Positions 4,137 to 38,605 of a stretch of 64,000 bases of DNA are shown piece by piece. Position 1 is the first letter of the stretch; each line of letters opens with the position of its first letter. The stretch lies in the IMG/VR virus record IMGVR_UViG_3300021960_000024; one strand, given 5' to 3'. The position numbers and the translations under genes are program-made. The notes beneath the pieces are model-generated. The model made no database searches. It worked only from the letters and a program-made list of their open reading frames with translations, and had not been told where the DNA came from. The DNA is from an uncultured virus (IMG/VR IMGVR_UViG_3300021960_000024) (lineage: Duplodnaviria > Heunggongvirae > Uroviricota > Caudoviricetes).

Positions 4137-5087
4137 ATGAAAACCTTCAAATCTTTATACGAGGAATTAGATTTCGCACCCACCCACTCATTAAGTTTAT
4201 CAGAACTTATTTTTACTAGGGCAGAAGGTGGATCAGATATGTCAGCCACTTCAGCAAGAAGAGGTGGGCCCGGTTCGCCAGCAAATCATATGTGGCTGCC
4301 TCTATCTGGTTCTATGTTTAAAAGAATATTCCCGAAGGAAGTTAGAGCAACAGTTTTTCATGTAACAAGAATGACTAGTTTTGATCAGTTGTATGAAATT
4401 CAAAACTCAAATCGTTCCATATCTGCATTTACAAATATGGATAGAACACCTATTGTTACAGGTGTACAGGGAGGTAGTGGTCTTGTTATTGAACTGGAAG
4501 GAAACATTCTTGCATCAGCAAAAGAAGACCTTATGTCTATTCCCGAAACATCTGGTAGAAGGATGCTTGGTTTTAATTGGTTCAGAGGTCCGTGGGGTTC
4601 CGATGATGTTGCGAAAATGCAAAAGGGTCTTGAAATACTATTGAAAGTATTAATCAAAAAATATGGAAAGGCCTTTGGTGGAGATGCACCAAAAGGTAAA
4701 GATGATTTTGACAAATGGATGCACATGCATGTGACATATAAAAATTCTAAAGTAAAGAATGCTGGTAGGATAATGCAATCTCTTATAAAGGATTATTTGG
4801 ATGGTGTTGAGAAAGTATTCAAAAAAAATTCCACACAGGTTCAGAATACATTGACTCGTTATATGCAACGCCGCAAAACTGATGATAACTGGGATGAGAT
4901 TGTAATTGATGATTTTGAAATCAAAAAGATATGGATAATAGAGGATGCAGATGAAATGGTGTCTGGTGCTGCTGAAGAGTTTAAATCTAACATAACATCT
5001 ACAAAATTACCAGTTGAGATTATTAATGCCCAGAACATGGAAGCACATGTAAGGGGTGTTGCAATGAAAGCTACAGGTAGGTCATAA
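4137..5087 (+). CDS. Hypothetical protein, possibly capsid-internal
   Basis: N-terminus MKTFKSLYEE resembles the T4 capsid targeting sequence. Confidence 0.55.
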   Translation: MKTFKSLYEELDFAPTHSLSLSELIFTRAEGGSDMSATSARRGGPGSPANHMWLPLSGSMFKRIFPKEVRATVFHVTRMTSFDQLYEIQNSNRSISAFTNMDRTPIVTGVQGGSGLVIELEGNILASAKEDLMSIPETSGRRMLGFNWFRGPWGSDDVAKMQKGLEILLKVLIKKYGKAFGGDAPKGKDDFDKWMHMHVTYKNSKVKNAGRIMQSLIKDYLDGVEKVFKKNSTQVQNTLTRYMQRRKTDDNWDEIVIDDFEIKKIWIIEDADEMVSGAAEEFKSNITSTKLPVEIINAQNMEAHVRGVAMKATGRS

Positions 5088-6691
5088 TGATAACACAATC
5101 AGATTTAAATCAGGTAGAGAAGTTTGCTGATCGGCTGTTCGCAAAGGTTGGTATTGATGTTGAGTTCACTCGACACTTTATGGACAGGGTGAATGATGCT
5201 CGTAATAAGAAAGCTATCACACCTTCTGAACTGACTCGTCTATTCAAGCAGTCTTATTCCAAGTATGGTAAAAAGATAGCACAGCTTGGTCCTGATGCTG
5301 AAGCTGTTATCAATGACATGAAGACGAATATCAATATGCCATTTGTCCTCAACCTCAAAGGAAATGAGTTGGAGTTGGTGGCAAAAACTGTTATGCGTAA
5401 GAAAGATTTCAAGACCTCTGGTCCTAAGTTGTCTTTTGAACAGTTTAGTAATTGTTCACCTTTTGTTCTTTTAGAAGATAAGGGCGGTAAGAACCTTCAC
5501 CTAGAACATCTAGAGGATGAAATCCTTAACTATGGTGTTGATGGTGGTAGAGCTGCACTTGACTTCCTGCGTTCTCTACGAGATATGTTAGCGGGTTCTG
5601 CACGTTCTAGTGTAAACATGACGGTTAAGTGGGACGGTGCGCCAGCAATCTTCGCTGGTGTTGAACCAGAGACAGGTGACTTTTTTGTGGCCAAGAAATC
5701 TGTGTTCAACGTCTCACCCAAATTATACAAGACCACAAAAGAAATTGATGATGATTTATCTGGAGCATTAAATGAAAAGTTTAAAGTTGCACTTAAAGAG
5801 TTTTCTAAGTTGGGTATCAAGGGGGTACTACAGGGTGACCTCATGTTCACTGACGATGTGGAAACAGAGACTATCGATGGCGTCAAGTATTATACTTTTC
5901 AGCCTAACACTATTGTCTATGCTATACCTGTTGATAGCGTATTAGGTAAGACTATCAACAAAGCAAAAGTTGGTATTGTCTGGCACACCACATATACAGG
6001 CGACACCCTACAGGGTATGAAAGCATCATTTGGTGCAGATATTAAGGGGTTAAAAACCCCATCAAGCGTTTGGATGGATGATGCAACCTATAAGGACGCA
6101 TCTGGTAAGGCAACATTTACTGCTAAAGAGACAGAACAAATCACTGCTATACTATCACAAGTTGGTAAAACTTTCAATAAGATCAATGCGAATGGGTTGC
6201 GTAAGTTCCTTACTGTGCAGAACGGTATGACGGGTGCGATTGCTGGTGCATCTCTCAAGACTTACAATAACTCAAAGGTTCGTGCGGGTGAGAAGATTAG
6301 TAATCCTGCCGCACATGCAAAGGGTTATGAGAAGTGGGTGTTTGACTCTATCCAGAAACAGATTGACAAGGTTAAGAGTGACAAGGGTAAGAAGAAATAC
6401 ACTGACATGCAGAAAGAGTATGGCCGTGAAATAAAAAAACACACTCAAAATCTAACACAGATCATCACCTTCCAGAACCTATTGGTTGATGCGAAGATGC
6501 AAATCGTTAATAAACTAAATAGTGTAAAGGGTTTGACCGATACTTTTATTAAGACCTCAAATGGATTTAAGGTGACAAATCCCGAAGGATATGTTGCTAT
6601 TGACAGAATAAGTGGTGGTGCAGTTAAACTGGTGGACCGTATGGAGTTCTCGTTTAACAACTTCACAGCTGTCAAAAATTGGATGAAATAG
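5087..6691 (+). CDS. Conserved phage protein (DUF6267-like) with ligase-type nucleotidyltransferase motifs and an extra N-terminal domain
   Basis: KNLHLEHLED, VKWDGAP (KxDG), QGDLMF, PEGYV, VKLVDR. Confidence 0.6.
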   Translation: MITQSDLNQVEKFADRLFAKVGIDVEFTRHFMDRVNDARNKKAITPSELTRLFKQSYSKYGKKIAQLGPDAEAVINDMKTNINMPFVLNLKGNELELVAKTVMRKKDFKTSGPKLSFEQFSNCSPFVLLEDKGGKNLHLEHLEDEILNYGVDGGRAALDFLRSLRDMLAGSARSSVNMTVKWDGAPAIFAGVEPETGDFFVAKKSVFNVSPKLYKTTKEIDDDLSGALNEKFKVALKEFSKLGIKGVLQGDLMFTDDVETETIDGVKYYTFQPNTIVYAIPVDSVLGKTINKAKVGIVWHTTYTGDTLQGMKASFGADIKGLKTPSSVWMDDATYKDASGKATFTAKETEQITAILSQVGKTFNKINANGLRKFLTVQNGMTGAIAGASLKTYNNSKVRAGEKISNPAAHAKGYEKWVFDSIQKQIDKVKSDKGKKKYTDMQKEYGREIKKHTQNLTQIITFQNLLVDAKMQIVNKLNSVKGLTDTFIKTSNGFKVTNPEGYVAIDRISGGAVKLVDRMEFSFNNFTAVKNWMK

Positions 6692-9600
6692 ATGCGTAGT
6701 TTTAGAGATATCACAGAGGCTAAAGAAACTGTTGTATTTGGATTCGGGCGATTCAATCCAAGCACGATTGGGCATGAGGCCGTTATTGAAAAGATTGCTT
6801 CTGTAGCAAAGGGCAATCCATTCTTCATATATCCTTCACATACTACTGGACCTAAAGACCCCCTAAAGCACTCTTTGAAAATTGCGTGGATGAGGAAGAT
6901 GTTCCCCAAGTACAAGAAGAACATTATTGTAGATAATAAGGCTAAGACTGTCATCAACATTGCTGAGAAACTATACAAGGATGGTTATAAAAATTTAATT
7001 CTTGTGGTGGGAAGCGATAGAGTAAAAGATTTCGATGCCCTATTACAGAGATATAATGATGCACCAGACAAAAAAGGTAATCAGTTATTCAAATTTGATT
7101 CAGTCAAAGTGGTATCTGCTGGAGAGCGTGATCCAGACGCAGATGGCGTTGCCGGGATGTCTGCCAGCAAACTCAGAAAGGCAGCATCAGATGGTAAGTT
7201 TGATGATTTCAAAAAGGGTATCCCCAATACATTGAACGACGCCGATAAGAAGAAATACTATTTTGACGTTCGTAAGGGAATGGGTATTCGTGAAGATCGT
7301 GAAATGGGTGATGACTATGATTCATTGCGTGACGCATACCTCACAGGTAAAATCTGGAACGTGGGTGAAGTTGTAGAGGCAAACGGTGTCAGTGGTGAGG
7401 TTGTTCGTAAGGGTACAAACTATCTCTCATTCGTAGCAGAGGATGGCAAGGTTCATAAGGCATGGTTACATGAGATTGAACTTGATGAAAATGCAGTTTA
7501 TGATAAAGCAAAGTCTGATGGTGCTAAAAAATATAAAGATAGTCTTGGTGGTGAAGAACCTCTGACAGCAGCAAAATCTCCCTTACAGAAATTGAAGGAC
7601 TTTGACAAGTCCAGAGTTGCCGCAGGGAAACCACCCATATTTACAGACAAGAAACCACCTAAGTTTATTCGCATGAAGAAGTCTGGCCAGATGACAATCA
7701 TGAATGTCCCTACTGATGAGATTGATAAATTTGAGAAGAAGGGTTATGAGATCATTGAAGACCTTGTTGGTGTAAAACCAATGAGTGGACCTACAGGACA
7801 AATCTTTGCATTGAAGTCTGAAGAAGTTGAACTTGATGAAGACGCTTCTGTATATAAAAAGACTGCAAGAAAAAATAAAAATGACGTTACATATGCTTTT
7901 GGTAGAACTAAAAAACTAGATGGCCAACCAAAAGAAAAGGGTGGATATTGGGTTTGGAAATTGTCGAAGAATTATGATGGAAAAGTTCGGGGTGGTATTA
8001 GAGACTCATGGGTATATGTTGACAAAGATTTATCTTATTCTGATGCTGTCAAATTAATGAATAAAAAACTTGGACGCAAAGAATTTAAAGAATCAGTTAA
8101 GGGTAAGGATGTTGGATATCCAGATGAATCCGTGAAGATTGGTAAGAAACACTATATCATCTACAAAGGTGGTAGAGAATGGTATGGATATGAAGTAGAC
8201 AAAGAGGGAAACCAGCTTGGAGACTCAGTGTTTGATCCTAAAAAGAGTGAACTGATAAAGATTCTCGCACAAGAAGGTCTTGATGAGCGCAACTACGCTA
8301 AAGAATATGCGAACTACCAAGGAACACCAGAACAGATTGCTCGCCGTTCTTCAAGGAACAAGGCTCGTAGGGCAATGGGTGACAAGGCAGTTAAGGGTAT
8401 GGACGTTGGACATAAAGACAACAACCCAATGAATAATGACCCGAAGAACCTACGCATGGAGAAACCATCTGACAATCGTAGAGAACCACGGTTGCGTGAA
8501 GAAGATGAACTTGATGAGATGGCATGGTATAAAGTAGCACTAGCAAAAATTAGTCAATTGAACCACCCTAAAGATTATGAAAAAATGGTCAAACAATATG
8601 CGACTGATATGAAAAAACCAGAACTAAAAAACAAGACTGCTTCTTATATCGCAGCAAGGATTGCCCAAGAGTATAAGGGTCAGGACGGTAGAAAACTTGT
8701 TCAGTATATCAACAAACTGGTTGATGATGGTAAACTCCCCAAAGAACTCAAGGCAGAATATCAAGAAGAAGAAACAATGCAGACCTTTAGTGATTTCGTT
8801 AAACAGATCAATGAAGTCAAACAGGACAAAGATGTAGATGATAAGGATGGAACACAACCAGCAAAGTACTATGCTGGTGATATGGCCAAGTCTACCAAAT
8901 CCAAGAGGGATGCACACTTCAAAGCAAAGAAGGCTGGTCCTGCTCCCGGCGATGCTTCTGCAAAAACTAAACCATCCACACACACTAAGAAGTTCAAACA
9001 GATGTATGGCGAAGCGTTACCTAAAGATGCAGATCAAGGTGATTACATCGATGATTTCGAGAAGTCAGATGCACCACAGTTTAGGGGTAAGTCTAAAGAG
9101 AAACGCAAGGACATGGCTATCGCTGCATACCTCTCAAAGAATGAGTCTTTCCTAGATAACGTCAGTAGGATGTTGGGTGAGGATGGTCACACTGATGTTG
9201 CGTCTATGAAAAATAAGGTTCAGATTGCTCAAAAAGCATTGATGAAGATGCAAGGTGAACTGACTAAACTTGGTGATGAAGATGATCTACCTACATGGTG
9301 GACAAACAAGGTTGCAACAGCAGTATCTCGTTTGGATGACATGTCTGATTATATTGACACTCAGGTTGAAGATGTGCAACTAGACGAAAAGATTGAAGGT
9401 CTGGTGAAGAAGGCAGATAAGTCTGGTATGCCATACTCTATTCTCAAGAAGGTATATGATCGTGGTATGGCAGCATGGAAAACGGGTCATCGTCCCGGCA
9501 CCACACCACAACAGTGGGCGATGGCGAGGGTCAACTCGTTCGTGACAAAGAGTAGTGGCACTTGGGGTAAAGCAGATAAAGACCTAGCAAAACAGGTTGA

Positions 9601-9964
9601 ACAGATAGAAGAAGCTTGTTGGGTTGGATACAAACAGGTTGGTATGAAAAAGAAGGGTAATAAAGAAGTGCCCAATTGTGTACCAGAAGAGAAAGAATTA
9701 AATGAGTGGGGTGAGATTGAGGAAGAATCAGAATATCAAGGTCGTAAAGTCACTCTAAACAAACCCACAAAGGGTGATGTTAAAAAGTCCAAGGTGTATG
9801 TCAAGAATGAAAAAGGCAATGTAGTCAAGGTCGAGTTCGGTGATCCTAACATGCAAATCCAAAAAGACATTCCATCACGAAGGAAAAGCTTCCGTGCTCG
9901 ACACAATTGTGATAATCCCGGCCCAAAATGGAAAGCAAGATACTGGTCATGCAAAGCATGGTAA
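6692..9964 (+). CDS. Multi-module polyprotein: HxGH-type nucleotidyltransferase domain, then HNH-like and other small modules separated by acidic linkers
   Basis: FGRFNPSTIGH, VVGSDRV, SAGERDPD, MSASKLR; DVGHKDNNPMNN; YDRGMAAWKTGHRPG; ACWVGYKQVG..PNCVP; RKSFRARHNCD..YWSC; linkers EIELDE, EEVELDE, EGLDE, EEDELDE. Confidence 0.75.
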   Translation: MRSFRDITEAKETVVFGFGRFNPSTIGHEAVIEKIASVAKGNPFFIYPSHTTGPKDPLKHSLKIAWMRKMFPKYKKNIIVDNKAKTVINIAEKLYKDGYKNLILVVGSDRVKDFDALLQRYNDAPDKKGNQLFKFDSVKVVSAGERDPDADGVAGMSASKLRKAASDGKFDDFKKGIPNTLNDADKKKYYFDVRKGMGIREDREMGDDYDSLRDAYLTGKIWNVGEVVEANGVSGEVVRKGTNYLSFVAEDGKVHKAWLHEIELDENAVYDKAKSDGAKKYKDSLGGEEPLTAAKSPLQKLKDFDKSRVAAGKPPIFTDKKPPKFIRMKKSGQMTIMNVPTDEIDKFEKKGYEIIEDLVGVKPMSGPTGQIFALKSEEVELDEDASVYKKTARKNKNDVTYAFGRTKKLDGQPKEKGGYWVWKLSKNYDGKVRGGIRDSWVYVDKDLSYSDAVKLMNKKLGRKEFKESVKGKDVGYPDESVKIGKKHYIIYKGGREWYGYEVDKEGNQLGDSVFDPKKSELIKILAQEGLDERNYAKEYANYQGTPEQIARRSSRNKARRAMGDKAVKGMDVGHKDNNPMNNDPKNLRMEKPSDNRREPRLREEDELDEMAWYKVALAKISQLNHPKDYEKMVKQYATDMKKPELKNKTASYIAARIAQEYKGQDGRKLVQYINKLVDDGKLPKELKAEYQEEETMQTFSDFVKQINEVKQDKDVDDKDGTQPAKYYAGDMAKSTKSKRDAHFKAKKAGPAPGDASAKTKPSTHTKKFKQMYGEALPKDADQGDYIDDFEKSDAPQFRGKSKEKRKDMAIAAYLSKNESFLDNVSRMLGEDGHTDVASMKNKVQIAQKALMKMQGELTKLGDEDDLPTWWTNKVATAVSRLDDMSDYIDTQVEDVQLDEKIEGLVKKADKSGMPYSILKKVYDRGMAAWKTGHRPGTTPQQWAMARVNSFVTKSSGTWGKADKDLAKQVEQIEEACWVGYKQVGMKKKGNKEVPNCVPEEKELNEWGEIEEESEYQGRKVTLNKPTKGDVKKSKVYVKNEKGNVVKVEFGDPNMQIQKDIPSRRKSFRARHNCDNPGPKWKARYWSCKAW

Positions 9965-9966
9965 CT

Positions 9967-9982
9967 TATAAATATATAAATA
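9967..9982 (+). promoter_or_regulatory. Two tandem T4 late promoters
   Basis: TATAAATA TATAAATA. Confidence 0.8.
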
Positions 9983-10004: not shown

Positions 10005-12074
10005 ATGTCAAATTACAGAAAAACAATGGCCGATGCGCTGCGAGAGATGTATCCTCTTACAGAAGAAACACAGATTGATGAAGCTACAATGAGTTCTTCT
10101 CAGATTGCGAGGTTGAAGAAGGCATATGAACCTATGCGTGATAAGAAAATCAGTACATCAAATGCTGATAAACTTAGCGCAATGATGGACAAGGTGGGTA
10201 AAGACAAAGAAGCACTTATCCAGTTGTTCAAGGCAGATATTCCTTTCGTGAGTCAAAGCGCAGTAACAAAACTTATTACCAAGCACAATATGAAGGGTGC
10301 TGAGATTAATAAGTTGCGGGAAGAAGTTGACCTTGATGAGGTAGGTGGTTCTGCGTTTGGTGGAACGATTGATAAAATTCAAAAGGTTGTTGATGACAAA
10401 CAAGCAACGAAGATTGATGGTGTAATGGTTGATACATTTACCGCATCATTAATTATGAAAATCTGGAACGGGGTGAGCAAACAAAATCAAGACAAGATGA
10501 GGAAAATGAAAGTCACTCAACTTGCTAAGACAGCATATAAATTGGCAGGAATGAAAGAAGAAGTTGACCTTGATGAAGGAACAAAACAGGTTCTTGCTCA
10601 CGGTGGTAAAGGTAAGTATAAAGTAACCAAGGATGGCGACAAAATTGAAATTAAGTTCGGTGGTAAGGTAGTTGGAACTGCTGACTTTGACCGTGGTGCT
10701 GACAGTTTCTTCGTAAGTATCAAAGGTGAGAGGGGTCAGAAGTCTTTTGACGATGCACAGGCAATTGCTGATTATTTCGCAAAGAACAAGATTACAGAAG
10801 AAGTTGACCTTGATGAAGGTAAGATGAACAATGCGACGATGCAAGCAAACAAACCAAGGATTGAAAAAGCAAAAAAACTTATGGGACCATCTACAAGTAG
10901 AAAAGAAGGCATACAGATGGTTGCAAAGGGTATGCCCACTTCAGAAAAAGAGGCTACTAAACTGGTTGATACAGTTATAAAGATGATGCAGAAAAATGAT
11001 TATGTCCCAGAAGAAGTTGACCTTGATGAAAATCTCAATGAAATAAAAAAACATATTGATGATCTTGAGTTTGAGCGCAAGCGTATGACAACCAGCGGTC
11101 AGGAATCTTTAGATAAACTCATTAAGGCAAAAAGTATAAAAGATGCCAGAAAAGCATTTGATGACATGTATGGATACGAATATGACAGAGTTACATCAAG
11201 TGGTCAAGAGAGTATGGTTAAGATTGGTAAAATGTTGGGTATGAAGATGGAAGAAGTTGACCTTGATGAAGATAGTCTTGATGATTTTCAAGACTTTGCC
11301 CGTCTTTATGGTGGGGGTGATGAAATTTATGTTGTAACTCAAGGAAAAGATTCTAATTCACTAAAAGTTATTGGTATAGAAAAAGACCCAAATAAAGCAA
11401 AGAAAATCCGTGATCGTGCTAAAGGTGCGAGAGCAAGTCTTTGGGGTCAGATGAAAAGTTCTCAAAAAGTTCTCAAACTAAAAATTGGTGATCCTGTTAG
11501 TTTTGAAGACTCCAAAAATAAATTATCTTTTATTGAAGAAGTTGACCTTGATGAAGGTAAGATGTCTCAGTTGCACCAGTATATCAAAGACAAGAAGAGC
11601 GCAGAAGAGATTGCGAAACTGATGAAGTTGGATGTCAAAACAGTTAAGTCACTGATGAGCAGTCATCATCCAGAGGATGTTGAAGAGGGTGCTGCAGCTG
11701 ATGCTCGCCGTGCAATGCGTGCTGATCCAGATATGCGACAGAAGTTCTCAAAGGATGTTTCTGCAACTGATGATGACGTAAAGGGCGCATCAAAGAATAT
11801 TATGATGCAGATGCGAAAAGCACAATCACTGAATGGTCGTTTCGATGTTGAGTTTGCTGACGGTAAGAAAGTTAAAATTCCTGCGAAGATGGCTATTGCA
11901 GTTCAGCAGAAATACAATTCTATGAAAAGACCCGCAGAGAAAGAAAAGTTTCAGGCAAAAATTGGAAAGTCTTACAAGGATATGTTGTCTGCACTTAAAG
12001 AAGAACTACAACCCAAGAAAGAATCAATCCTAGAACGGATGAATAGAAAACTCAAGGAGAATAAAGATGGGTAA
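10005..12074 (+). CDS. Modular polyprotein with six EEVDLDE linkers (putative protease-processed internal head protein)
   Basis: EEVDLDE occurs six times, separating mostly unrelated 60-90 aa modules; late promoters and RBS upstream. Confidence 0.7.
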   Translation: MSNYRKTMADALREMYPLTEETQIDEATMSSSQIARLKKAYEPMRDKKISTSNADKLSAMMDKVGKDKEALIQLFKADIPFVSQSAVTKLITKHNMKGAEINKLREEVDLDEVGGSAFGGTIDKIQKVVDDKQATKIDGVMVDTFTASLIMKIWNGVSKQNQDKMRKMKVTQLAKTAYKLAGMKEEVDLDEGTKQVLAHGGKGKYKVTKDGDKIEIKFGGKVVGTADFDRGADSFFVSIKGERGQKSFDDAQAIADYFAKNKITEEVDLDEGKMNNATMQANKPRIEKAKKLMGPSTSRKEGIQMVAKGMPTSEKEATKLVDTVIKMMQKNDYVPEEVDLDENLNEIKKHIDDLEFERKRMTTSGQESLDKLIKAKSIKDARKAFDDMYGYEYDRVTSSGQESMVKIGKMLGMKMEEVDLDEDSLDDFQDFARLYGGGDEIYVVTQGKDSNSLKVIGIEKDPNKAKKIRDRAKGARASLWGQMKSSQKVLKLKIGDPVSFEDSKNKLSFIEEVDLDEGKMSQLHQYIKDKKSAEEIAKLMKLDVKTVKSLMSSHHPEDVEEGAAADARRAMRADPDMRQKFSKDVSATDDDVKGASKNIMMQMRKAQSLNGRFDVEFADGKKVKIPAKMAIAVQQKYNSMKRPAEKEKFQAKIGKSYKDMLSALKEELQPKKESILERMNRKLKENKDG
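10320..11555 (+). repeat. Six identical interspersed 20-nt direct repeats GAAGAAGTTGACCTTGATGA
   Basis: Copies start at 10320, 10557, 10797, 11010, 11250 and 11535; a one-mismatch copy starts at 7820. Confidence 0.95.
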
Positions 12075-12738
12075 GAAATATTTTGACACAAAGGCCGAAA
12101 CCCTTGAATCTTCGATTCTAGGTATTTGGACAGAAGCAGCTAAGAAGGTTGCTGAAACCAATAAGAACAACAAGTCTGATGATGGTGAGGGGTTGGATGC
12201 AGTTCAACCAAAAGCAGTCAAGAAGAAGTTCAAGGATCGTAAGGACAAGGACATCGACAACGATGGCGACACTGATGATTCTGATGAGTATCTTCACAAT
12301 CGTCGTAAGACAGTATCTAAGGCAGTAAAAGGTAAAGTAAAGGATGAAGGTAACGCATTTGGAATGGCACTAAAGGCTGCCAAAGACAAGGGCGAAAAAA
12401 CTTTCGTTGTTGCTGGTAAGACATATGAAGTCAAAGAAGGTTTCGCAGTACCAGAAGATGTTCCTGCAATGGAAGTCGGTACAGACCGTTATCGTGAATA
12501 TGCTGTTGGTCTTACGCCCGGTGAAAATGCTGAGTTTGCAGCTGCACAGGACTTCAAGGTTGCTTCAATGAAGGAAGCACTTGCAAAAGTTTGGGGTTTG
12601 GACGAGAAAGCACTTGACAAATCCTCTAAAGAAGAGTATGATGAAGAAGATGAGGAGCTCAAACCCGTTAAAGGTTCAAAGACCATGACAGGTGGAAAAG
12701 TTGCTAAAGTGGATACTAAACCCAAAATTGATGGTTGA
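12067..12738 (+). CDS. Highly charged hypothetical protein with a DxDxDG loop
   Basis: DIDNDGDTDDSDEYL; RBS AAGGAG. Confidence 0.55.
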   Translation: MGKKYFDTKAETLESSILGIWTEAAKKVAETNKNNKSDDGEGLDAVQPKAVKKKFKDRKDKDIDNDGDTDDSDEYLHNRRKTVSKAVKGKVKDEGNAFGMALKAAKDKGEKTFVVAGKTYEVKEGFAVPEDVPAMEVGTDRYREYAVGLTPGENAEFAAAQDFKVASMKEALAKVWGLDEKALDKSSKEEYDEEDEELKPVKGSKTMTGGKVAKVDTKPKIDG

Positions 12739-25069: not shown

Positions 25070-25324
25070 GTGGAAGATATTATTAAAGCGGTTCAAGACG
25101 AAGGTATAACTGTTGTCATGGCTGTTGGTATGGGTTATTTTATATTTTTTATATGGAAGTATGTGACTCAACAAATTTTACCCGCACTCGACAAAGCTAC
25201 GATGACAACTATATCTCTCATTGACAGAGTAAGGATGCTTGATAATGACATGATAAGAATGGACCAGAAAATCAATACGATTCTGGAACTTCGTGACATA
25301 GAAAAGGAGAAGAAGGATGAGTAG
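25070..25324 (+). CDS. Membrane protein resembling the preceding gene
   Basis: TM helix; LIDRVRMLDNDMIRMD resembles ALDNRVKTLNNEIVRLD. Confidence 0.55.
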   Translation: MEDIIKAVQDEGITVVMAVGMGYFIFFIWKYVTQQILPALDKATMTTISLIDRVRMLDNDMIRMDQKINTILELRDIEKEKKDE

Positions 25325-25871
25325 GAACTTTTTCAGTCTAAAAACAGGTCATCATGCTTCTGATGTATTCTTTAAAAATCAGGCAATCTGGCACGATAGT
25401 GATATGCTCAAATCATTCTTGATAGGGGCATTTGTCGGTGCGCTCTTTGCTTTCGGATGTGCATTCCTCTCACCTTCACATGCTGGGGAACTTACTCACA
25501 CATGGAAGTCACCCGCATTTAGTGGTCAGGGATACAGCGCACATGTTTTGACCATTGAGAACCAAGAGTTTTCAAGGTCGCAAGCAATTAGAGAAAAGAA
25601 AGAAGCTGCTGAACGTCAAGCAATACGAGATGCTGCAAATACAAACCTTTCTAAATTTATGAAGAATGTGGAATCAAGAATATATGCACAACTTTCAAAA
25701 CAACTAGTAGATAGTATGTTTGGAGAAGAGGCTTCAACTTCCGGTACAGTTACTTTTGAGGGTACAACAATTAGTTATGTCAAAAGTAGCGAAACCGTAG
25801 ATTTAACGATTGTGGATGCAAATGGTAGTACGACTGTTATCACTGTTCCTGTTGGCGACTTTACTTTCTAG
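25317..25871 (+). CDS. csgF: Curli assembly protein CsgF-like
   Basis: Signal peptide, then ELTHTWKSPAFSG and ESRIYAQLSKQLVDSMFG. Confidence 0.8.
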   Translation: MSRNFFSLKTGHHASDVFFKNQAIWHDSDMLKSFLIGAFVGALFAFGCAFLSPSHAGELTHTWKSPAFSGQGYSAHVLTIENQEFSRSQAIREKKEAAERQAIRDAANTNLSKFMKNVESRIYAQLSKQLVDSMFGEEASTSGTVTFEGTTISYVKSSETVDLTIVDANGSTTVITVPVGDFTF

Positions 25872-26610
25872 TTGTGCGAGCATCCAACCACAGGATGCTC
25901 CTGTACCTAGTACTGTGCCGTTAGTAGATGAACTATACAACATAACACCACCTGAACGTAAGGTGCCGGTTGCGGTGTATAAGTTCAATGACGTAACAGG
26001 ACAAAGAAAATCCAGCTCATCACTTGCATTACTAAGTAGTGCAGTGACACAAGGTGGAGATATATGGTTAATCCAAGCCCTAAAGAAAGCAGGTAAGGGC
26101 GAGTGGTTTCAAGTCATAGAAAGAATGGAACTGGAAAATCTGTTAAAAGAAAGACAGATTATACGAAACACAAGAAAGAACTATGACGGAGATACGGCAG
26201 AAAAGATTAAACCCCTATTGTTTGCGGGAGTATTGCTGACAGGGGGCATAGTTGGGTATGACACCAATACAAGTACAGGTGGTATGGGGGTAAGATATCT
26301 GGGTATTGGTGTATCTGATGAATATCGTAAGGACATGGTAACAGTGGCTTTACGATTAATATCTGTACAGACAGGTGAAGTACTTTTGGCAGTCAGTTCT
26401 CAGAAAACTATTCTGAGTACAAAGTTATCTGCCACAGTGTTTAAATTTTTAGATATGGGAACTAAATTGCTGGAGACTGAAGCAGGGATAACGGACAATG
26501 AGTCCACTACCTACGCTGTGAGAAAAGCAATTGAACAAGCAGTTATTGAAATAATCAAGGAAGGTGAGCAAAAAGAATTATGGAAATTTAAAGAGGAGAA
26601 AATCAAATGA
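25822..26610 (+). CDS. csgG: Curli secretion channel CsgG-like lipoprotein
   Basis: Lipobox LLSSC; VAVYKFNDVTGQRK, SSAVTQG, LENLLKERQIIR, GGIVGYDTN, LRLISVQTGEVL. Confidence 0.92.
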   Translation: MVVRLLSLFLLATLLSSCASIQPQDAPVPSTVPLVDELYNITPPERKVPVAVYKFNDVTGQRKSSSSLALLSSAVTQGGDIWLIQALKKAGKGEWFQVIERMELENLLKERQIIRNTRKNYDGDTAEKIKPLLFAGVLLTGGIVGYDTNTSTGGMGVRYLGIGVSDEYRKDMVTVALRLISVQTGEVLLAVSSQKTILSTKLSATVFKFLDMGTKLLETEAGITDNESTTYAVRKAIEQAVIEIIKEGEQKELWKFKEEKIK

Positions 26611-27290
26611 GAACGAGCATACTTACAATACTCGCTTACTTTGTTATGTGTAGTGTGAGTTATGCGAGCGACGTATACATAACACAGTCTGGTGCGAGCC
26701 TGACTGCAAACATCAATCAAGATGGACAGACCAATAAGTTCGGTGATGATACAACTGATGTTACTCTAACAGGTGACAGCCAGACGTTAGACATTGATCA
26801 GGTTGGTAACACTAACACCATTGCTGCATCTGTTGTCGGTGCAACACAGACATTGACAATAAATCAGACAGGTAATAGTAATACGTCTAACGTATCTGTT
26901 GGTGCTAACTCTGCATCTGATGACAATAGTATTATCCAAACAATCACTGGCAGTTCAAATACAACAACAGTGAACGTGGGTAATAATGCTGCAACCGATG
27001 ATGCTGATATTGATATCACTGCGACAGGCGATAGCAATACTATTACAGTAAATGAAAACAGCACTGCTACAATGGGTGTTGGTGACAAGAAGGTGACGAA
27101 CATCACAGCTATCGGCGGGAGTAATACGATTACATCAACACACACTGGTGCTGCTGATCAAGACACAACTCTTCATCACACTGGTTCATCTAGCACATTT
27201 TCAATTACACAGGGTGGTGCCTATGATGGAGCTGTAGATGTGACAACAGTGGGGTCAAATCACAGTGTTACGATTACTATGGACGATTAG
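26607..27290 (+). CDS. Curlin-like secreted repeat protein
   Basis: Signal peptide; about 23-aa repeats of the form I-x-Q-x-G-x-x-N. Confidence 0.75.
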   Translation: MRTSILTILAYFVMCSVSYASDVYITQSGASLTANINQDGQTNKFGDDTTDVTLTGDSQTLDIDQVGNTNTIAASVVGATQTLTINQTGNSNTSNVSVGANSASDDNSIIQTITGSSNTTTVNVGNNAATDDADIDITATGDSNTITVNENSTATMGVGDKKVTNITAIGGSNTITSTHTGAADQDTTLHHTGSSSTFSITQGGAYDGAVDVTTVGSNHSVTITMDD

Positions 27291-28326
27291 TATCATTCTC
27301 TTTAGTACCAGTGCTTATGGTGCTATTGGAAATGTGGTGAAACACAAAGGGAATGCTTCTGTAGAACGGTCAGGTGAAAACTCTGTTTTGCAAAAGGGTT
27401 CTGATATCGAGTTCAAGGACACGGTGAAAACTGGTAAAGGCGATGTTGGTATCAAGTTTGTTGATGACACCAACGTAGCAGTGAGTGCCCACAGTGCCTT
27501 GGTTATCGATGAGTTTATCTATGACCCTAACTCTAGAAAGGGGTCGAAGTTGGTTATGAATATTGCACTTGGCACGGTGCGTTATGCGAGTGGTAATATT
27601 GCGAAGTTGAATAATCAGAACGTGGACATTCGGACACCAACAGCAAGAATTGGTGTGTTGGGAACGGCGTTCAGTATGACGGTGGATGAGGTTGGTAAGT
27701 CTTTAATTATTCTGTTACCTAATAAAGACGGGACAGTGGGTAAGATATCGGTGGAGACTGATGTAGGACAGGTTATAATGAATCAAGCATTTCAGTCAAC
27801 TGTGGTTGGTACAGGAGAAGCAAAACCATCCAAACCAGTGATACTAGATTTGACACTAGACCAGATTAACAACTTATTGATTATCAAACCACCAAAGAAG
27901 AAACTTATCAAATTGCTTAGTGACTCAAAGGCAAACAAGAATTTACTTGATATTGATTTTCTTGAGTTTGCCGCTTTAGATAAGAATGAGCTAGAGGAAG
28001 ACTTGTTTGAGTTTAACGAGTTGGACATTAACGATTTGGATGTGGAGTTACTAGGTAACATTCTTGACCAGATTGCTCTTGCTTTGGCTCAGTCAGAGTT
28101 GATAGATGGTAGGACAAGTGGATTTAATAAGTCAACACAAGTTAATACACTGGTAGACGGAAACAGCACACGAATCATACGAAGGGTAGGAAACAATACA
28201 ATAGAACTAGACTTGATAAACGACTATGGATATACAATCAACATTACACAGGGTACACCCGTGCCGGAGATAACAACAAGAGATGAAGACGCTTCTAATA
28301 TCATTACTATTACTCAGTCTGACTAA
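27265..28326 (+). CDS. Secreted FecR-domain protein
   Basis: Signal peptide; DTVKTG, IKFVDDT, IRTPTARIGVLGTAF. Confidence 0.8.
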   Translation: MLRLLWTISIILFSTSAYGAIGNVVKHKGNASVERSGENSVLQKGSDIEFKDTVKTGKGDVGIKFVDDTNVAVSAHSALVIDEFIYDPNSRKGSKLVMNIALGTVRYASGNIAKLNNQNVDIRTPTARIGVLGTAFSMTVDEVGKSLIILLPNKDGTVGKISVETDVGQVIMNQAFQSTVVGTGEAKPSKPVILDLTLDQINNLLIIKPPKKKLIKLLSDSKANKNLLDIDFLEFAALDKNELEEDLFEFNELDINDLDVELLGNILDQIALALAQSELIDGRTSGFNKSTQVNTLVDGNSTRIIRRVGNNTIELDLINDYGYTINITQGTPVPEITTRDEDASNIITITQSD

Positions 28327-29069: not shown

Positions 29070-29543
29070 ATGAAAACATTTATTGAGTTTGGCGCCCCAT
29101 GTAATATGAGAGGGTTAGAAACTATCCCATATAGTATTACAAAAGCGAAAAAAGAAGGTTATAGAACAATTGCAATAGACTGTAAGAGCCGAGATTTTCA
29201 TTTCACACCAGAATATATTAAAGTTGTAGACAAAACATATTATAATTATTGGAGTGATGACATAGATATTCCTTTAGCAGATAAATGGATTTCATATGCT
29301 TCACTTGAACATTGTCCTAAAGAAAGAGTTTTAAAAGAGGTTGAAGGTATTGCAAAAAAAGTTAAAGGCAGTGGGGAATTGTCAATTGACTTATCACAAC
29401 ATGTCCACGGGCCGTGGACATACCTAAATAATATACAAACATCTGAATGGATAGATATTATGGATAATTTTTTTATATACATATTTGAAGAAGATTTAGA
29501 CGATGAGATGATATATTTTAGAAATTGTGTGGCGGCGCTATGA
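29070..29543 (+). CDS. Possible SAM-dependent methyltransferase-like protein (AT-rich insert)
   Basis: IEFGA, IAID, SLEH; AT-richer than its neighbours. Confidence 0.4.
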   Translation: MKTFIEFGAPCNMRGLETIPYSITKAKKEGYRTIAIDCKSRDFHFTPEYIKVVDKTYYNYWSDDIDIPLADKWISYASLEHCPKERVLKEVEGIAKKVKGSGELSIDLSQHVHGPWTYLNNIQTSEWIDIMDNFFIYIFEEDLDDEMIYFRNCVAAL

Positions 29544-31591
29544 AAAAGTGGATTATATCATTATCAGTGATTTTAGTATTATGTGGATTGCGTTTTGCAG
29601 ACCCGTGGTTTTTGGACATGGTGCGACTCAAAGCACTAGACCAACACCAACGTAATCAGGAGTCTCTGACTCTCTCTAACCTTGCTACGGTAGAGATCAA
29701 TAATCAAACAATCAGAAAACTAGGTCAGTGGCCGTGGGATCGAAACAGGGTTGCAAACAAAATTATAGAACTCTATCAGGCTGGTGCCTCTATCGTGGTT
29801 GTCCCTATTCTATTTGCAGACCCAGACAGATTTGGTAAAGATGATGCACTTGCCAGAATACTCAAAAAGACTCCTACGGTTATAGGACAGATACCCAGCA
29901 ACGACAAGAGTAACACTGGTGTGGTTCGTGGTGTTGCAACTGTTGGAGAAGACTGGCAACCGTGGGTATACAGTTACCCCGGCGTGGTTGGTCCTATTCC
30001 AGAACTGGCAAAGAGTGCCAATGCGGTTGGTATGATGGTAATCGCACCAGAGAAAGATGGTGTGGTTCGTCGTATGCCTTTGGTTGTTGCAGTGGGCGGG
30101 AAGTTGTATCCATCTATCAGTATGGAAATCCTACGCATGGCTGCGGGGGATATATCGTTTCAGATGAAGACAGGTATTGCTGGTGTGGAGAAACTACGCA
30201 TACCCAAATACAAAATGATTGACACAGATGCTAATGGTAATATCTGGTTGGACTTCAAATGGAAGACACCAGTGTATGCATTACATGAGAAATTACCAGA
30301 CCTCACAGGTAAGATCGTTATACTGAGTATGACTGCTTCTGGTCTAGAAAGTCCCGTAGCAACCCCTGTGGGGGTCATACAGTCGCATAATCTTATAGGT
30401 GCATCACTTGCTACCATGATGACAGGACGCAATATAACCAGACCATTTTGGACTGACCTTGCTGAACTTGCAGTCAGTGGAGTGGGTGCATTGATCTTAG
30501 CATCAGTGGTTCTCACACTCGCATGGTATTTTGGGGCAGTATTACTACCCATTTTTCTTGTTGGATCGTTCTACGGGTCGTCCTACCTCTTTACAGAGTA
30601 CAGTTATCTAGTGGATTGGTCATATCCCGTCCTTACTATGTTTGTGGTCTGGGCCATTGCTGCGTTCTTACGGTTCATGGAAGAATATAAGGAGAAGATG
30701 GAGATCAAGAAACAGTTCGCAGGGTATGCATCACCTACAGTTGTGCGTATGCTACAGGAGAACCCTTCTCTTATTAAAGATGGTATGAAGAAGGAGATCA
30801 GCATTTGCTTCTCTGACCTTCGTGGGTTCACACCGTTGGGTGAGAGTTTTGGTGATGATGTCAAGGGTCTTACTGAAATCATGAATGGGTATATGGATGC
30901 AATCACACAACCTATTTTAGATTCAAATGGCATGGTGATCAAATATATCGGTGATGCGAGTATGCATATTCATAATGCACCTATAGATGACCCAGACCAT
31001 CCAAGGAGCGCAGTCAAAACTGGACTACAGATGTTAGATGCAGTAGTAAAGTTTAACGACAAGATCGTTGCAGAAGGTAAACCACCTATAGGAATGGGTG
31101 CGGGTATCAACACCGGCCTTGGTTATCTTGGAGAGATGGGTTCTACTATGCGACACAGCTACGATGTTCTAGGAGATGCAGTATCGACTGCTGCTAGGAT
31201 TGAGAGCAAGTGTAAGGAATATGGTTGTCTGCTGTTAGTAGGCGAATCCACATATGACTTGACTAAGAATGACTTCTTCTATCTCAAGGTTGATGAACTG
31301 GCAGTGAAGGGTAAGACCATCGGTATTCGTATCTACACCGTCCTGAGTGAAATGGATTGGATGATGAAGAATACCAATTGGGGTATGGCAGAAAACCAGC
31401 ATGAAAGAATGCACGAGTATTATAGCAATCAACAATTTGACCATGCCATTCGTCTATGCAATGATCTGATGAATGAATTTGATGGTAAAATGAGAAACTA
31501 CTATACTATGTGGATAGAAAGGTGTGAGTTCATGAAGACCCAGCCACTAGACAAAGATTGGAACGGTGTGTTCATAGCCACAACTAAATAA
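29540..31591 (+). CDS. CHASE2-domain membrane class III adenylate cyclase
   Basis: GQWPWDR, ILFADPDR, DGVVRRMP (CHASE2); three TM helices; FSDLRGFT, KYIGDA, GINTG, YDVLGDAV, VKGK. Confidence 0.92.
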   Translation: MKKWIISLSVILVLCGLRFADPWFLDMVRLKALDQHQRNQESLTLSNLATVEINNQTIRKLGQWPWDRNRVANKIIELYQAGASIVVVPILFADPDRFGKDDALARILKKTPTVIGQIPSNDKSNTGVVRGVATVGEDWQPWVYSYPGVVGPIPELAKSANAVGMMVIAPEKDGVVRRMPLVVAVGGKLYPSISMEILRMAAGDISFQMKTGIAGVEKLRIPKYKMIDTDANGNIWLDFKWKTPVYALHEKLPDLTGKIVILSMTASGLESPVATPVGVIQSHNLIGASLATMMTGRNITRPFWTDLAELAVSGVGALILASVVLTLAWYFGAVLLPIFLVGSFYGSSYLFTEYSYLVDWSYPVLTMFVVWAIAAFLRFMEEYKEKMEIKKQFAGYASPTVVRMLQENPSLIKDGMKKEISICFSDLRGFTPLGESFGDDVKGLTEIMNGYMDAITQPILDSNGMVIKYIGDASMHIHNAPIDDPDHPRSAVKTGLQMLDAVVKFNDKIVAEGKPPIGMGAGINTGLGYLGEMGSTMRHSYDVLGDAVSTAARIESKCKEYGCLLLVGESTYDLTKNDFFYLKVDELAVKGKTIGIRIYTVLSEMDWMMKNTNWGMAENQHERMHEYYSNQQFDHAIRLCNDLMNEFDGKMRNYYTMWIERCEFMKTQPLDKDWNGVFIATTK

Positions 31592-31917: not shown

Positions 31918-32295
31918 ATGAGCGGTATGCATTTATTGCCTGTGTATTATTCGACTACGAATACTCGCAAGCGCAAACAGAAAAAGAAGTCGGCCTCTGT
32001 CCTAGAGGCAGAGCGTCAACACGCAAAGTTTCTCAAGAAGATGGGTATAGGCACTCGTAGCTCAGCTGGAACAGAGCAACGGCCTTCTAAGCCGTGGGTC
32101 ACAGGTTCGAGTCCTGTCGAGTGCGCCAAATTAGAGTCCTGCAAACCTACTTACAATTCTTCTATGTCAAAGAAAGAAGAGAATGTTTATACTGGCACTG
32201 AGATTATAGGTATCGCACAGATGCACAAGTCCAATGCTGTGCCGGTACGAAACAAGAAGTCTGCTGAAGAAGTTGCAAAGATGAGGCGAGGATGA
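31918..32295 (+). CDS. Conserved basic phage protein carrying an in-frame tRNA
   Basis: C-terminal YTGTEIIGIAQMHKSNAVPV motif seen in T4-like phage proteins; frame stays open through the tRNA. Confidence 0.65.
   Translation: MSGMHLLPVYYSTTNTRKRKQKKKSASVLEAERQHAKFLKKMGIGTRSSAGTEQRPSKPWVTGSSPVECAKLESCKPTYNSSMSKKEENVYTGTEIIGIAQMHKSNAVPVRNKKSAEEVAKMRRG
32051..32128 (+). tRNA. trnR: tRNA-Arg(TCT)
   Basis: Acceptor GCACTCG/CGAGTGC, D stem GCTC/GAGC, anticodon arm ACGGC-CTTCTAA-GCCGT, T arm ACAGG-TTCGAGT-CCTGT, encoded CCA. Confidence 0.95.
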
Positions 32296-32684
32296 TCACT
32301 GAAATCTTCGATGATACTTTCAAGCTTGCACAGTCAGTAGAACCTGTTCGTGGTGCAAGGATTGCTGCGGCAGTGGTACGCAAGGGCAAGGTGGTTTCCT
32401 ATGGATACAATCATAAAAAGACACACCCCTTTCAGGCTCAATTTTGCAAGAACAATCATGCAGTGTTTTTTCATGCAGAGGTCCATGCAATCAAGAATGC
32501 ACTCAAGTCAATTGATGTAGAAGACTTGTCTAAGTGCGAACTATATATTGTAAGGGCAAAGAGAGATAAGGCGAACAGAAAATGGATTACTGGTATGTCA
32601 AAACCATGTAGTGGATGCAAAAAGTGCATTGACTTATTTGACCTAAAGAGTGTATACTATTCAAAAGAAGGAGAATTGGTGTGA
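32292..32684 (+). CDS. Zinc-dependent deaminase (CDA superfamily)
   Basis: HAEVHAI and KPCSGC. Confidence 0.8.
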   Translation: MITEIFDDTFKLAQSVEPVRGARIAAAVVRKGKVVSYGYNHKKTHPFQAQFCKNNHAVFFHAEVHAIKNALKSIDVEDLSKCELYIVRAKRDKANRKWITGMSKPCSGCKKCIDLFDLKSVYYSKEGELV

Positions 32685-37590: not shown

Positions 37591-38114
37591 GTCACTTTAG
37601 GTTTATCGAAAGAAACATTGACGTAAGTGATATCCTCGCTGATATAAAGGATGAGGATTGGGCTGTAGCAGGATCACTACAAGGTGCTTCTGGAGATACG
37701 AAACCGTATGGATTTCTACCCCTCACTATGGCTGCGGTTAAACACCCTGACGACGACCCTAAAAAGACTGAACTTCAACAGAACACTCCTATGTACTATC
37801 GTTATCCCGGTATCAGGAAATGGTTGAAGTCTTATAAACTGCACCGACATTCAAGAGCAGCGTTCTTTAGATTGAGGCCAGGCGATACACTAGGTCTGCA
37901 TGTTGATGAAGGTGACTACTATCTGACACGGGACAGGTATCATCTATCGTTGCAGGGTACATATCTGTACACGGTTGAAGATGAGTCACATCAGATTGAT
38001 CCCGGCACATTTTTCTGGTTTGACAACAAACGTCCACATATGTCATATAACAATGGTGATGTTGATAGGCTGACATTTGTGTGGGACGTTCCCAAGGGTA
38101 GGAGAAATCCATGA
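37587..38114 (+). CDS. Asp/Asn beta-hydroxylase-like 2OG-Fe(II) oxygenase
   Basis: LHVDEG, RYHLSL, WFDNKRPH. Confidence 0.75.
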   Translation: MSHFRFIERNIDVSDILADIKDEDWAVAGSLQGASGDTKPYGFLPLTMAAVKHPDDDPKKTELQQNTPMYYRYPGIRKWLKSYKLHRHSRAAFFRLRPGDTLGLHVDEGDYYLTRDRYHLSLQGTYLYTVEDESHQIDPGTFFWFDNKRPHMSYNNGDVDRLTFVWDVPKGRRNP

Positions 38115-38605
38115 TTGAAATATTTGATAATGTTCTGGGTACTAACAAATATGATCAAGAGATATCCCATTTAAAATGGTCATACGAGTATCAACCAATA
38201 ACTCCACCACTACTCAACAAGCACTGGTATTCTGACGGAAAACCTTTCATTGATGACCTGTTCAAAGATTTGGTAGGATCAATCCAATTAGAGGGTTTAG
38301 ATTCCGTTAACTCCTCTTATATTCTTGGCCACACTCATGGGTTGGAACAACAAGCTCATTATGACGCTTGTGACTTCACCATGATATATTATCCAAAACT
38401 GGATTGGCAATCTGATTGGGGTGGTGGAACATTGATTGGTGACACTCTGGTTTCATATGTTGGTGATCGGTTAGTGATTTTCAGTTGTGACCAGATACAC
38501 CAAGGACAACCAATTTCAAAGTATTGTCAGGAATTGCGGCCAATCGTCGTATTTCAATGTAATGCTAAAAGCGCAATGATAGAAAGATTATCATGGCAGA
38601 GGTAA
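38111..38605 (+). CDS. 2OG-Fe(II) oxygenase (prolyl hydroxylase-like)
   Basis: HYD, WQSDWGGGT, RLVIF, IHQG. Confidence 0.75.
   Translation: MIEIFDNVLGTNKYDQEISHLKWSYEYQPITPPLLNKHWYSDGKPFIDDLFKDLVGSIQLEGLDSVNSSYILGHTHGLEQQAHYDACDFTMIYYPKLDWQSDWGGGTLIGDTLVSYVGDRLVIFSCDQIHQGQPISKYCQELRPIVVFQCNAKSAMIERLSWQR

Follow-up and report, generated by a model that had tools for sequence, protein, structure and literature searches.

How can a phage gene carry one short DNA sequence six times, identical to the base, between protein segments that are unrelated to each other, and what keeps the copies identical? This question is raised by a gene of an uncultured virus (IMG/VR record IMGVR_UViG_3300021960_000024), from which a stretch of 64,000 nt was analysed; the whole stretch, in the following called the window, is a partial genome of a T4-like marine myophage. 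The gene is the open reading frame (ORF) 10005..12074, and the repeated sequence, GAAGAAGTTGACCTTGATGA, is read in it as the heptapeptide EEVDLDE, which forms the linker between the segments, here termed modules. In this abundant group of marine T4-like phages, the presumed cargo genes of the virion have been joined into polyproteins. A short element in them appears to have a dual role, as a head-protease cut site in the protein and as a crossover point in the DNA, and such a role would explain why modules without kinship can be gained, lost, or relocated while the gene stays intact. It is considered fairly probable that the ORF encodes a late precursor polyprotein of the head interior, the protease-cut linker of which doubles as the joint of module exchange.

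The scan of the window placed exact copies of GAAGAAGTTGACCTTGATGA on the plus strand at 10320, 10557, 10797, 11010, 11250, and 11535, together with near-copies that have one mismatch at 7820 and two mismatches at 8498. These eight matches compare with 0.01 expected, and none of 100 shuffles attained eight. The distances from copy to copy (237, 240, 213, 240, and 285 nt) are each divisible by 3, and all six exact copies are read in frame as EEVDLDE within the 689-aa product, as linker 1 (10320..10340), linker 2 (10557..10577), linker 3 (10797..10817), linker 4 (11010..11030), linker 5 (11250..11270), and linker 6 (11535..11555). The 21st base is common to five of the six copies and differs in linker 1, where it is G and the last codon is GAG. 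Linker 3 and the 9 nt that follow it (GGTAAGATG, Gly-Lys-Met) make up a joint of 30 nt, which ends in GAAGGTAAGATG and is found without change at linker 6. The preliminary description of this DNA had reported the six identical repeats with these positions and spacings, the 30-nt identity of copies 3 and 6, and the one-mismatch copy at 7820; all of them were found again, and the near-copy at 8498 has been added. It had also claimed more identity than selection on the peptide requires, which is borne out by the codon usage of the window: the six-codon choice has a probability of P = 0.0064 per copy and of 6.7e-14 for all six copies, and the agreement of the six copies on whichever choice of codons has P = 9.3e-12. 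The sister record G001 (48.6 kb) contains the same eight repeat sites as the window.

The linkers delimit seven modules on the plus strand: module 0 (10005..10319, aa 1-105, pI 9.5), module 1 (10341..10556, aa 113-184, pI 9.9), module 2 (10578..10796, aa 192-264, pI 9.4), module 3 (10818..11009, aa 272-335, pI 10.0), module 4 (11031..11249, aa 343-415, pI 8.9), module 5 (11271..11534, aa 423-510, pI 9.4), and module 6 (11556..12071, aa 518-689, pI 9.7). All seven are basic (pI 8.9-10.0); with the linker tail attached, four of them are near neutral or acidic. An all-against-all blastp comparison found no mutual similarity (best E 0.13), and the modules are therefore not diverged tandem duplicates, which upholds the earlier view of them as unrelated. 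As in polyvalent proteins, several unrelated domains share one polypeptide, seven dissimilar modules in this case, and the units are not alike in the way of a tandem-repeat protein made by duplication. The part of module 0 from aa 24 to 105 is one of two widely conserved modules; module 0 has 36 tblastn matches, and in the Pelagibacter phage HTVC008M its homologue occupies aa ~222-312 of the syntenic protein. Module 5 is matched only in loci L026 and L028 (100%), which are other records of the same phage. Module 6 consists of a three-helix part (aa 518-554), a disordered stretch in which a degenerate linker, EDVEE (11673-11687), is found, and a core (aa ~597-667), the most conserved part of the family. 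A protein search of relatives gave 45 matches to module 6, and the core is preceded in relatives by DLDE followed by ASARA. The sequence GAAGGTAAGATG after linkers 3 and 6 (10817-10826 and 11555-11564) resembles a Shine-Dalgarno-type purine run with an ATG, and the modules behind these two linkers begin with Gly-Lys-Met; internal initiation, or an origin from formerly separate genes, is possible there.

The view that the linker is a recombination joint, at which modules are shuffled among related phages, is well supported by the comparison of loci. In the island-end test, 64 non-redundant loci were compared, and islands of at least 93% identity with ends abutting unrelated sequence were considered. 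Unique island ends lay no more than 6 nt from a linker in 84 of 147 cases, compared with a null mean of 10.3 and a maximum of 19 in 200 randomisations. Among the 33 islands flanked by unrelated sequence on both sides, both ends were at linkers in 17, one end in nine, and neither in seven; these counts are lower bounds, because linkers with more than three changes went unrecognised. The module 4 segment of the window (11010-11271) is 98.5% identical to L048, the flanking parts being at 67%, and module 4 matches L071 and L083 at 98.0%. The segment 10557-10819 (module 2, bounded by linkers 2 and 3) is 97.0% identical to L063, where module 2 is present twice (98.6% and 78% aa identity), and the segment 10320-10581 (module 1 between linkers 1 and 2) matches L058 at 92.7%, the order there being swapped, with the module-0-like part downstream of module 1. 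Longer joints are shared as well. The 30-nt joint of linkers 3 and 6 recurs at 100% in L015, L024, L040, L048, L071, L075, and L083, and a 54-nt joint (10977-11030), composed of the last 33 nt of module 3 and linker 4, stands elsewhere behind other modules and is found at 87-98% in L017, L034, L038, L040, L048, L062, L076, L079, L082, L092, and L094. Homologues of the window modules thus occur in other combinations and orders in relatives, isolates included: the module-6 core lies near the N-terminus in the Methylophilales phage Melnitz, and module 0 in the C-terminal half in HTVC008M. Module content and order are not fixed across loci and isolates, and the DNA recombination joint put forward in the preliminary description agrees with the excess of island ends at the linker.

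Some contig evidence was kept apart from these counts. Logan contigs contain the joints 10581>11536, 10826>11535, and 11029/11030>11534/11535, as well as loose ends at 10578, 11030, and 11535, which were not counted as deletions or excisions, since their short sides (22-32 nt) barely exceed the repeated linker and their placement is ambiguous. A contig of run X16 joins 11271 to 11697 with a side of 39 nt and is a second sighting of the L048 arrangement, in which module 4 is joined to the module-6 core. Six runs contain 0.95-0.99 of the words of the window, and two of these may be its source.

The linker is also frozen at its silent sites across the clade. The exact 20-mer occurs in 92 IMG/VR stretches, always in frame within a long ORF. 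Because this sample had been picked by the repeat itself, a second one was drawn by protein, by a search with an alignment of the module-6 core. The search gave 174 relatives; 80 loci were retained, and removal of redundancy left 46. This protein-anchored sample contains 144 linkers in 39 of the 46 loci, and 95 of the 144 carry the canonical 20-mer in its E (GAA) or D (GAC) form. GAA is used for Glu1 in 136 of 143 cases and for Glu2 in 136 of 140 (background 0.72 for both), GTT for Val in 126 of 130 (background 0.54), CTT for Leu in 127 of 134 (background 0.32), and GAT for Asp6 in 128 of 133 (background 0.72). Asp4 is encoded by the minority codon GAC in 44 of 49 cases (background 0.28), and GAA for Glu7 (116 of 144) is near its background of 0.72. 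The freeze thus extends over bases 1-20 and spares base 21. Codon bias, which might have explained the identity of the copies, does not do so, as judged from the P values given above and from these family-wide codon counts. Since GAC is non-preferred and yet dominant over GAT, it is argued that the D form arose once and was then copied. At identical residues, the same codon is used in 481 of 510 cases (0.94) in linkers, compared with 0.54-0.68 in modules of <85% aa identity. HTVC008M and Melnitz have (L/I)-D-E sites with other codons, e.g., TTAGACGAA, Melnitz with one canonical copy; the frozen 20-mer is thus dispensable for the working of the gene. The sites read EEVELDE in gene_21 and EEIEIDE in gene_20 of Melnitz, and EQLDE and EIDE in HTVC008M. 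Drifted linker copies exist, and one to three silent changes are tolerated. A degenerate IMG/VR scan, restricted to CTN leucine codons, gave among the matches listed the canonical E form in 32 of 86, the GAC form in four, and the GAT form in four. Within the same locus, 44 of 142 linker pairs were identical, compared with 24.9 after shuffling (one ascertained copy per locus removed; attained in one of 2000 shuffles). The excess points, modestly, to local homogenisation of linkers, of which the six GAC copies of the window are the extreme case. Outside the clade, 11 contigs with two or three sites showed a private variant twice in one contig and scattered drift in the others, a weak indication of lineage-specific homogenisation.

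The heptapeptide itself ends in a motif of phage head maturation. The T4 protease gp21 cuts after Glu at L/I-x-E (PMC9026906, excerpt), and it cuts core proteins to pieces and strips the leaders of internal proteins (PMC9026906, PMC5694885, excerpts). This rule is followed in the sequence by the six L-D-E of the ORF and by the L-R-E of its leader. The predicted maturation sites of the capsid protein in four relatives are L-x-E followed by A or I, at the maturation position of T4 gp23, and Peptidase_S77 (PF03420) was found in four of five related records, the exception being G001, which is 33% complete. The linker is likely to be a head-protease site; of the cleavage site claimed in the preliminary description, the fit with the L/I-x-E rule and the genomic context stand, and cleavage itself is a prediction from them.

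Late expression in a head context is indicated by motifs before the gene and by gene order in relatives. Two abutting TATAAATA motifs (9967..9982, plus strand, at 9967-9974 and 9975-9982), which we take to be the T4-type late-promoter consensus, lie 23 nt 5' of the ATG. The motif occurs 10 times in the window, compared with 3.4 expected and with none of 100 shuffles attaining 10, and further sites lie 5' of baseplate (54026) and gp2-like (53579, minus strand) genes. In record G003, the gene order is portal, a 523-aa polyprotein gene with homologues of window modules 0 and 1 and of the module-6 core, a 96-aa ORF, head maturation protease, scaffold, and capsid protein. A 241-aa linker-bearing gene has the same position between portal and protease in record G002, and its C-terminal part resembles the module-6 core by eye. 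In T4, the core proteins gp67 and gp68 occupy the equivalent position. Moreover, the ORF begins with a 14-aa leader, MSNYRKTMADALRE (10005..10046, plus strand), which ends in L-R-E, is similar in kind to a capsid-targeting sequence (CTS), and is conserved among relatives. The form M-x-x-Y-x-K-T-M is found in 27 distinct N-termini, about two thirds of which (18, by hand count) have L-x-E at residues 12-14. Past about residue 16 the leaders diverge into different modules, and L045 and L048 share with module 0 of the window only aa 1-22 and 1-24, respectively. The leader has no sequence likeness to the T4 CTS; a conserved leader before variable modules would follow the logic of the latter. The basic character of all modules is as expected of proteins lying among packaged DNA.

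The following course of events is proposed. The ORF would be expressed late as a head-interior precursor, composed of the leader and seven basic modules joined by EEVDLDE. The 14-residue leader would target the chain to the prohead core, where a T4-type prohead protease (Peptidase_S77) would cut after the Glu of every L-D-E and free the modules, which, like the T4 internal proteins, would be DNA-associated and possibly injected cargo. As the comparison of loci shows, the 20-nt joints in the DNA, locally extended to 30 or 54 nt, serve related phages for in-frame exchange, reordering, duplication, and movement of modules, both within one gene and among three adjacent genes. The exchange would be driven by homologous recombination of the phage itself, acting on these short identities. 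Together with gene conversion, exchange that happens again and again would hold the joint identical at silent sites by concerted evolution, and a drifted joint would leave the exchange pool. If the protease reads the linker only and the modules act apart, any in-frame combination should be viable, and an evolvable cargo array could thus arise without a dedicated recombinase.

Several points weigh against this proposal. No protease or capsid gene was found in G001 or among the 69 ORFs scanned in the window, which is a partial genome, and the cognate enzyme is for this reason deduced from relatives. The capsid sites need L-x-E only, so that the conserved heptapeptide is not explained by the protease alone. 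Cutting, packaging, and injection of the modules are steps that we infer from the sequence, and a literature search found no proteome of this phage, HTVC008M, or Melnitz. No module function emerged from searches with Pfam, PHROGs, ESM Atlas, and Foldseek. As regards the exchange, the position of breakpoints at module borders may be owed in part to the loss of module-breaking recombinants by selection, instead of marking the place of crossover, and seven of the 33 islands end at no recognised linker. The loci are metagenomic contigs, in which strain chimeras could inflate the number of combinations, but could not create shared cassettes. A joint of 20 nt is short for T4-type homologous recombination, and a helper activity is therefore possible; recombination patches of <50 bp are mentioned in an excerpt of Arbiol 2010 (PMC2839356). 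The identity of linkers within a locus is also weaker when the window is left out (34 of 127 pairs, compared with 22.8; attained by 33 of 2000 shuffles).

Some of these points would suit a chain that stays uncut and acts as a multidomain protein, in which the heptapeptide would serve as a flexible spacer, or as a recurring tag for binding (to the scaffold, in DNA mimicry, or for charge balance), and exchange at the linker still occurs. Cleavage is a prediction, the capsid sites of relatives lack the EEV context, so that the longer motif may serve something else, and four of the seven modules are near neutral or acidic as long as the tail is attached. The motif ends, however, in the exact L/I-x-E rule, and a conserved leader with L-x-E at its end stands before variable cargo, as it does in the T4 internal proteins. 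The gene with module homologues lies beside the protease in G003, as does the short linker-bearing gene in G002, and the free reordering of modules suits parts that act separately. An uncut chain is considered rather unlikely on this evidence. The freeze of the silent sites raises a different issue, that of a direct nucleic-acid function of the 20 nt, which would then not be kept by recombination on plain homology. They could be a site for a phage-encoded nuclease or recombinase that starts the exchange, or a signal in RNA or in translation. Conservation that stops sharply at base 20 and the dominance of a non-preferred codon look like a site and not like a peptide, an HNH-like module is present in the neighbouring polyprotein (weak matches; HNH_3 20.9 bits, compared with a cut-off of 24.8), and the same question was raised for the PeSL cassettes of T4-type phages by Arbiol 2010 (PMC2839356, excerpt). 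Such a function is nevertheless distinctly unlikely: the linker had no match in Rfam, the 61-nt stretches around the six copies showed no common hairpin or attC-like fold (z-scores -1.88 to +1.22), HTVC008M and Melnitz use other codons, and one to three silent changes are tolerated. Moreover, none of the 69 window ORFs matched a family named as integrase or site-specific recombinase (69 were scanned with PHROGs and 32 with Pfam; no dedicated search with integrase models was made).

A shade less probable again is the more far-reaching idea that the 20-mer is a dedicated exchange site and more than a patch of homology, nicked or bound by a phage activity such as the HNH-like module of the neighbouring polyprotein, that cassettes between two linkers are excised as circles and re-enter any other linker in frame, and that the modules are injected counter-defence or host-takeover proteins. 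If this is true, abundant ocean phages would possess a counterpart of the integron for virion cargo, decoded by a protease and working without a recombinase or with the help of a nuclease. The copies could also be identical for ordinary reasons, if strong selection on the peptide is combined with the codon preference of a strongly expressed late gene, or if the contigs are of recent common descent. GAA, GTT, CTT, and GAT are indeed the commonest codons of their families in these loci, and many IMG/VR contigs are closely related, the 80 loci being reduced to 46. This account is contradicted by the P of 0.0064 per copy, by GAC in 44 of 49 Asp4 codons with Glu7 at background, and by linkers that are identical beside modules sharing codons at 54-68% of identical residues, and it is regarded as very improbable. 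The same small chance is given to the array or the mosaics being artefacts of metagenome assembly. Repeats invite misassembly, and the Logan contigs break around linkers, but the same six-copy order is found in the window, G001, L026, and L028 (the last two from two further IMG/VR records), six runs hold nearly all words of the window, even if two of them are possibly its source, and the linker is shorter than a read. Reordering is seen in isolate genomes as well, and the L048-type junction appears again in the X16 contig with its 39-nt side.

The precursor with exchangeable modules can be compared with several known systems. The preliminary description had called it integron-like. What stands of this is the gain, loss, and reordering at a repeated site, with an array of unrelated units bounded by that site; on the other side, no recombinase family was matched in the ORF scans and no att-like hairpin was found, and the units are in-frame protein modules, unlike the promoterless genes of integrons. 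The likeness may be taken as an analogy only. Closer to the present case are the internal-protein (IP) loci of T-even phages, for which Repoila et al. reportedly proposed in 1994 that conserved flanking sequences are recombination points. The T-even internal proteins (IPI, IPII, IPIII, Alt) are unrelated, mostly basic cargo sharing only a CTS that is ended by a gp21 site, and they are packed into the head, injected, and variable from phage to phage (PMC9026906, PMC12373910, excerpts). Their loci vary in the number, order, and identity of genes, with conserved flanks as proposed crossover points (PMC2839356, PMC3012670, PMC12373910, excerpts). Both systems would have unrelated basic cargo behind a short leader ending in a protease motif. 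Each T-even cargo has one gene, leader, and set of regulatory flanks, whereas in the present case a single frame and a single leader serve up to seven presumed cargoes; the joint is coding, would itself be the cut site, and would be left on the C-terminus of each released piece. The Pfam and PHROG scans found no similarity to the T4 IPs.

The PeSL cassettes of T4-type phages, reportedly also treated by Comeau et al. in 2014, offer a second comparison. In them, short repeats flank small variable genes that are shuffled by phage recombination, and excised mini-circles have been shown (Arbiol et al. 2010, PMC2839356, excerpt). PeSLs consist of an intergenic early promoter and a stem-loop terminator, whereas the linker is coding, bound to the frame, and without a common stem-loop. 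In phiKZ, 201phi2-1, and SPN3US, a gp21 relative processes many of the proteins inside the head, cutting them behind the Glu of S/A-x-E or A-x-E and at several places in one chain (PMC5694885, PMC9026906, excerpts). These cuts mostly strip propeptides from single proteins, and the excerpts describe no nucleotide-identical linker or cassette exchange. Polyvalent proteins unite many unrelated domains in one chain that is delivered with the DNA, and show proteolytic release and fast domain turnover (Iyer et al. 2017, PMC5512222, excerpt). They are characterized by known conflict domains and embedded peptidases, neither of which was found here in the Pfam and PHROG scans; release would be performed in trans by the head protease, unlike that by embedded peptidases. 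In the T-even tail-fibre adhesins gp37 and gp38, in-frame His-box and glycine-rich motifs flank variable segments and serve as recombination points. Those motifs lie inside one folded receptor-binding protein, and no independent modules are cut apart at them.

The literature searches brought up no account of cassettes joined in frame by a linker, and a search on the linker motif gave no relevant paper, the match to EEVELDE being in a food-science paper. The system had been put forward as undescribed; this applies to its in-frame form, and the T-even IP cassette loci are a close precedent. What appears to be new is the in-frame fusion of cargo behind one leader, with a joint that would be at once coding sequence, cut site, and crossover point and is silently frozen. 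The injected internal proteins of T4 are the classic virion cargo that disarms host defences. If the proposal is right, SAR11-type and related hosts should receive small basic proteins from a large pool, and the succession of leader, module, and linker may be a natural design rule for loading foreign proteins into phage heads. The silent-site freeze would be a clean and quantifiable case of concerted evolution of coding microhomology.

The modules have so far yielded few hints as to function. Pfam and PHROG scans of the 689-aa ORF gave no family. Its ESM Atlas model is of low confidence (pTM 0.20, pLDDT 0.57), and the best of its neighbours, all of them clusters of viral hypothetical proteins, scores 0.78. 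For module 6, AF2 gave a model with a mean pLDDT of 71 and with residues 1-37 and 80-150 confident, which had no match in the PDB (Foldseek, E <= 0.001). The start of module 6 (11556-11666, aa 518-554, ..KSAEEIAKLMKLDVKTVKSLM..) is a confident three-helix unit (pLDDT 76-86), and in the model it resembles a helix-turn-helix, with a LuxR-type DNA-binding domain at a probability of 0.41 over 52 columns, which is a hint. Among 70 linker-bearing ORFs, 55 have no Pfam family, and the families in the remaining ones are DUF5824, CTP_transf_like, one Zeta_toxin/AAA_33, and one Gp23 piece; the effector role suggested for the cassettes in the preliminary description is conjectural. The Zeta_toxin/AAA_33 kinase-like module (37 bits) is found in the linker-bearing polyprotein L074:1290-3539:- (aa 235-405) and belongs to the small number of modules that can be assigned to a fold family.

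By their sequence, both flanking genes belong to the same linker system as ORF 10005..12074. The upstream modular ORF (6692..9964, plus strand, 1090 aa) contains three further linkers, HEIELDE (7469-7489), EEVELDE (7820-7840), and EDVQLDE (9368-9388), the second of which is encoded by the canonical 21-mer in its E form; EEDELDE is found in the same ORF at 8498-8518. Its modules comprise a cytidylyltransferase-like N-terminus, a capsid-protein-like piece, an HNH-like module, and DUF5824. The capsid-protein-like piece (7751-7867, aa 354-392, ..PMSGPTGQIFALKS, directly before EEVELDE) matches positions 20-56 of Pfam Gp23 with 25.2 bits, and aa 229-292 of L082:454-3132:- likewise match positions 19-78; such a piece may mimic the scaffold-binding part of the capsid protein and so bring the chain into the prohead. 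The HNH-like module (8372-8521, aa 561-610) precedes EEDELDE and matches PHROG HNH endonuclease families (E 3.7e-5 and 1.4e-4), and Pfam HNH_3 below its cut-off, as given above. DUF6267 (5087-6691, 349 bits) and the cytidylyltransferase-like domain (6692-9964) are in separate genes in the window; both lie on one profile, phrog_455 (21-341 and 419-683), which indicates that they are fused in other phages. The downstream ORF (12067..12738, plus strand, 223 aa) is made of modules that are found inside linker-bearing polyproteins of relatives. Its module 'EGNAFGMALKAAK..TFVVAGKTYEV' follows directly behind, and is fused to, the module-0 homologue in L079, L034, and L038, and its Melnitz homologue contains EEVELDE, encoded by the canonical 21-mer.

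The wider setting is that of a T4-like genome. Homologues of gp32, gp41, gp59, gp61, ribonucleotide reductase, the gp2 end protector, and the gp4 head closure protein are encoded in the window, as are homologues of baseplate hub and wedge proteins. Among named genomes, HTVC008M and Melnitz come nearest, with partial matches only. In the phage collection, the 689-aa protein matched parts of six records only (14-15% covered), and megablast of 11 kb gave a single 87-nt match.

Other genes of the window may be noted. CsgF- and CsgG-like genes lie at 25317-26610 (Pfam 71 and 193 bits); a curli-type CsgF/CsgG cluster is described in pelagimyophages (PMC7029224, excerpt). At 29525-31591 lies the gene of a 688-aa protein in which a CHASE2 sensor domain (Pfam 123.8 bits) is combined with an adenylate/guanylate cyclase domain (61.5 bits); a FecR-like ORF (27265-28326) adjoins this gene. 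The region 140-2930 contains a GT8 glycosyltransferase, a DNA alpha-glucosyltransferase (228 bits), and a Tet/JBP-like 2OG-Fe oxygenase (29.8 bits, below the cut-off), and is probably a DNA hypermodification cluster. Two dCMP-deaminase-like genes (32292-32684 and 60956-61369) and two endonuclease-V-like genes (38111-38605 and 62905-63441) are also present.

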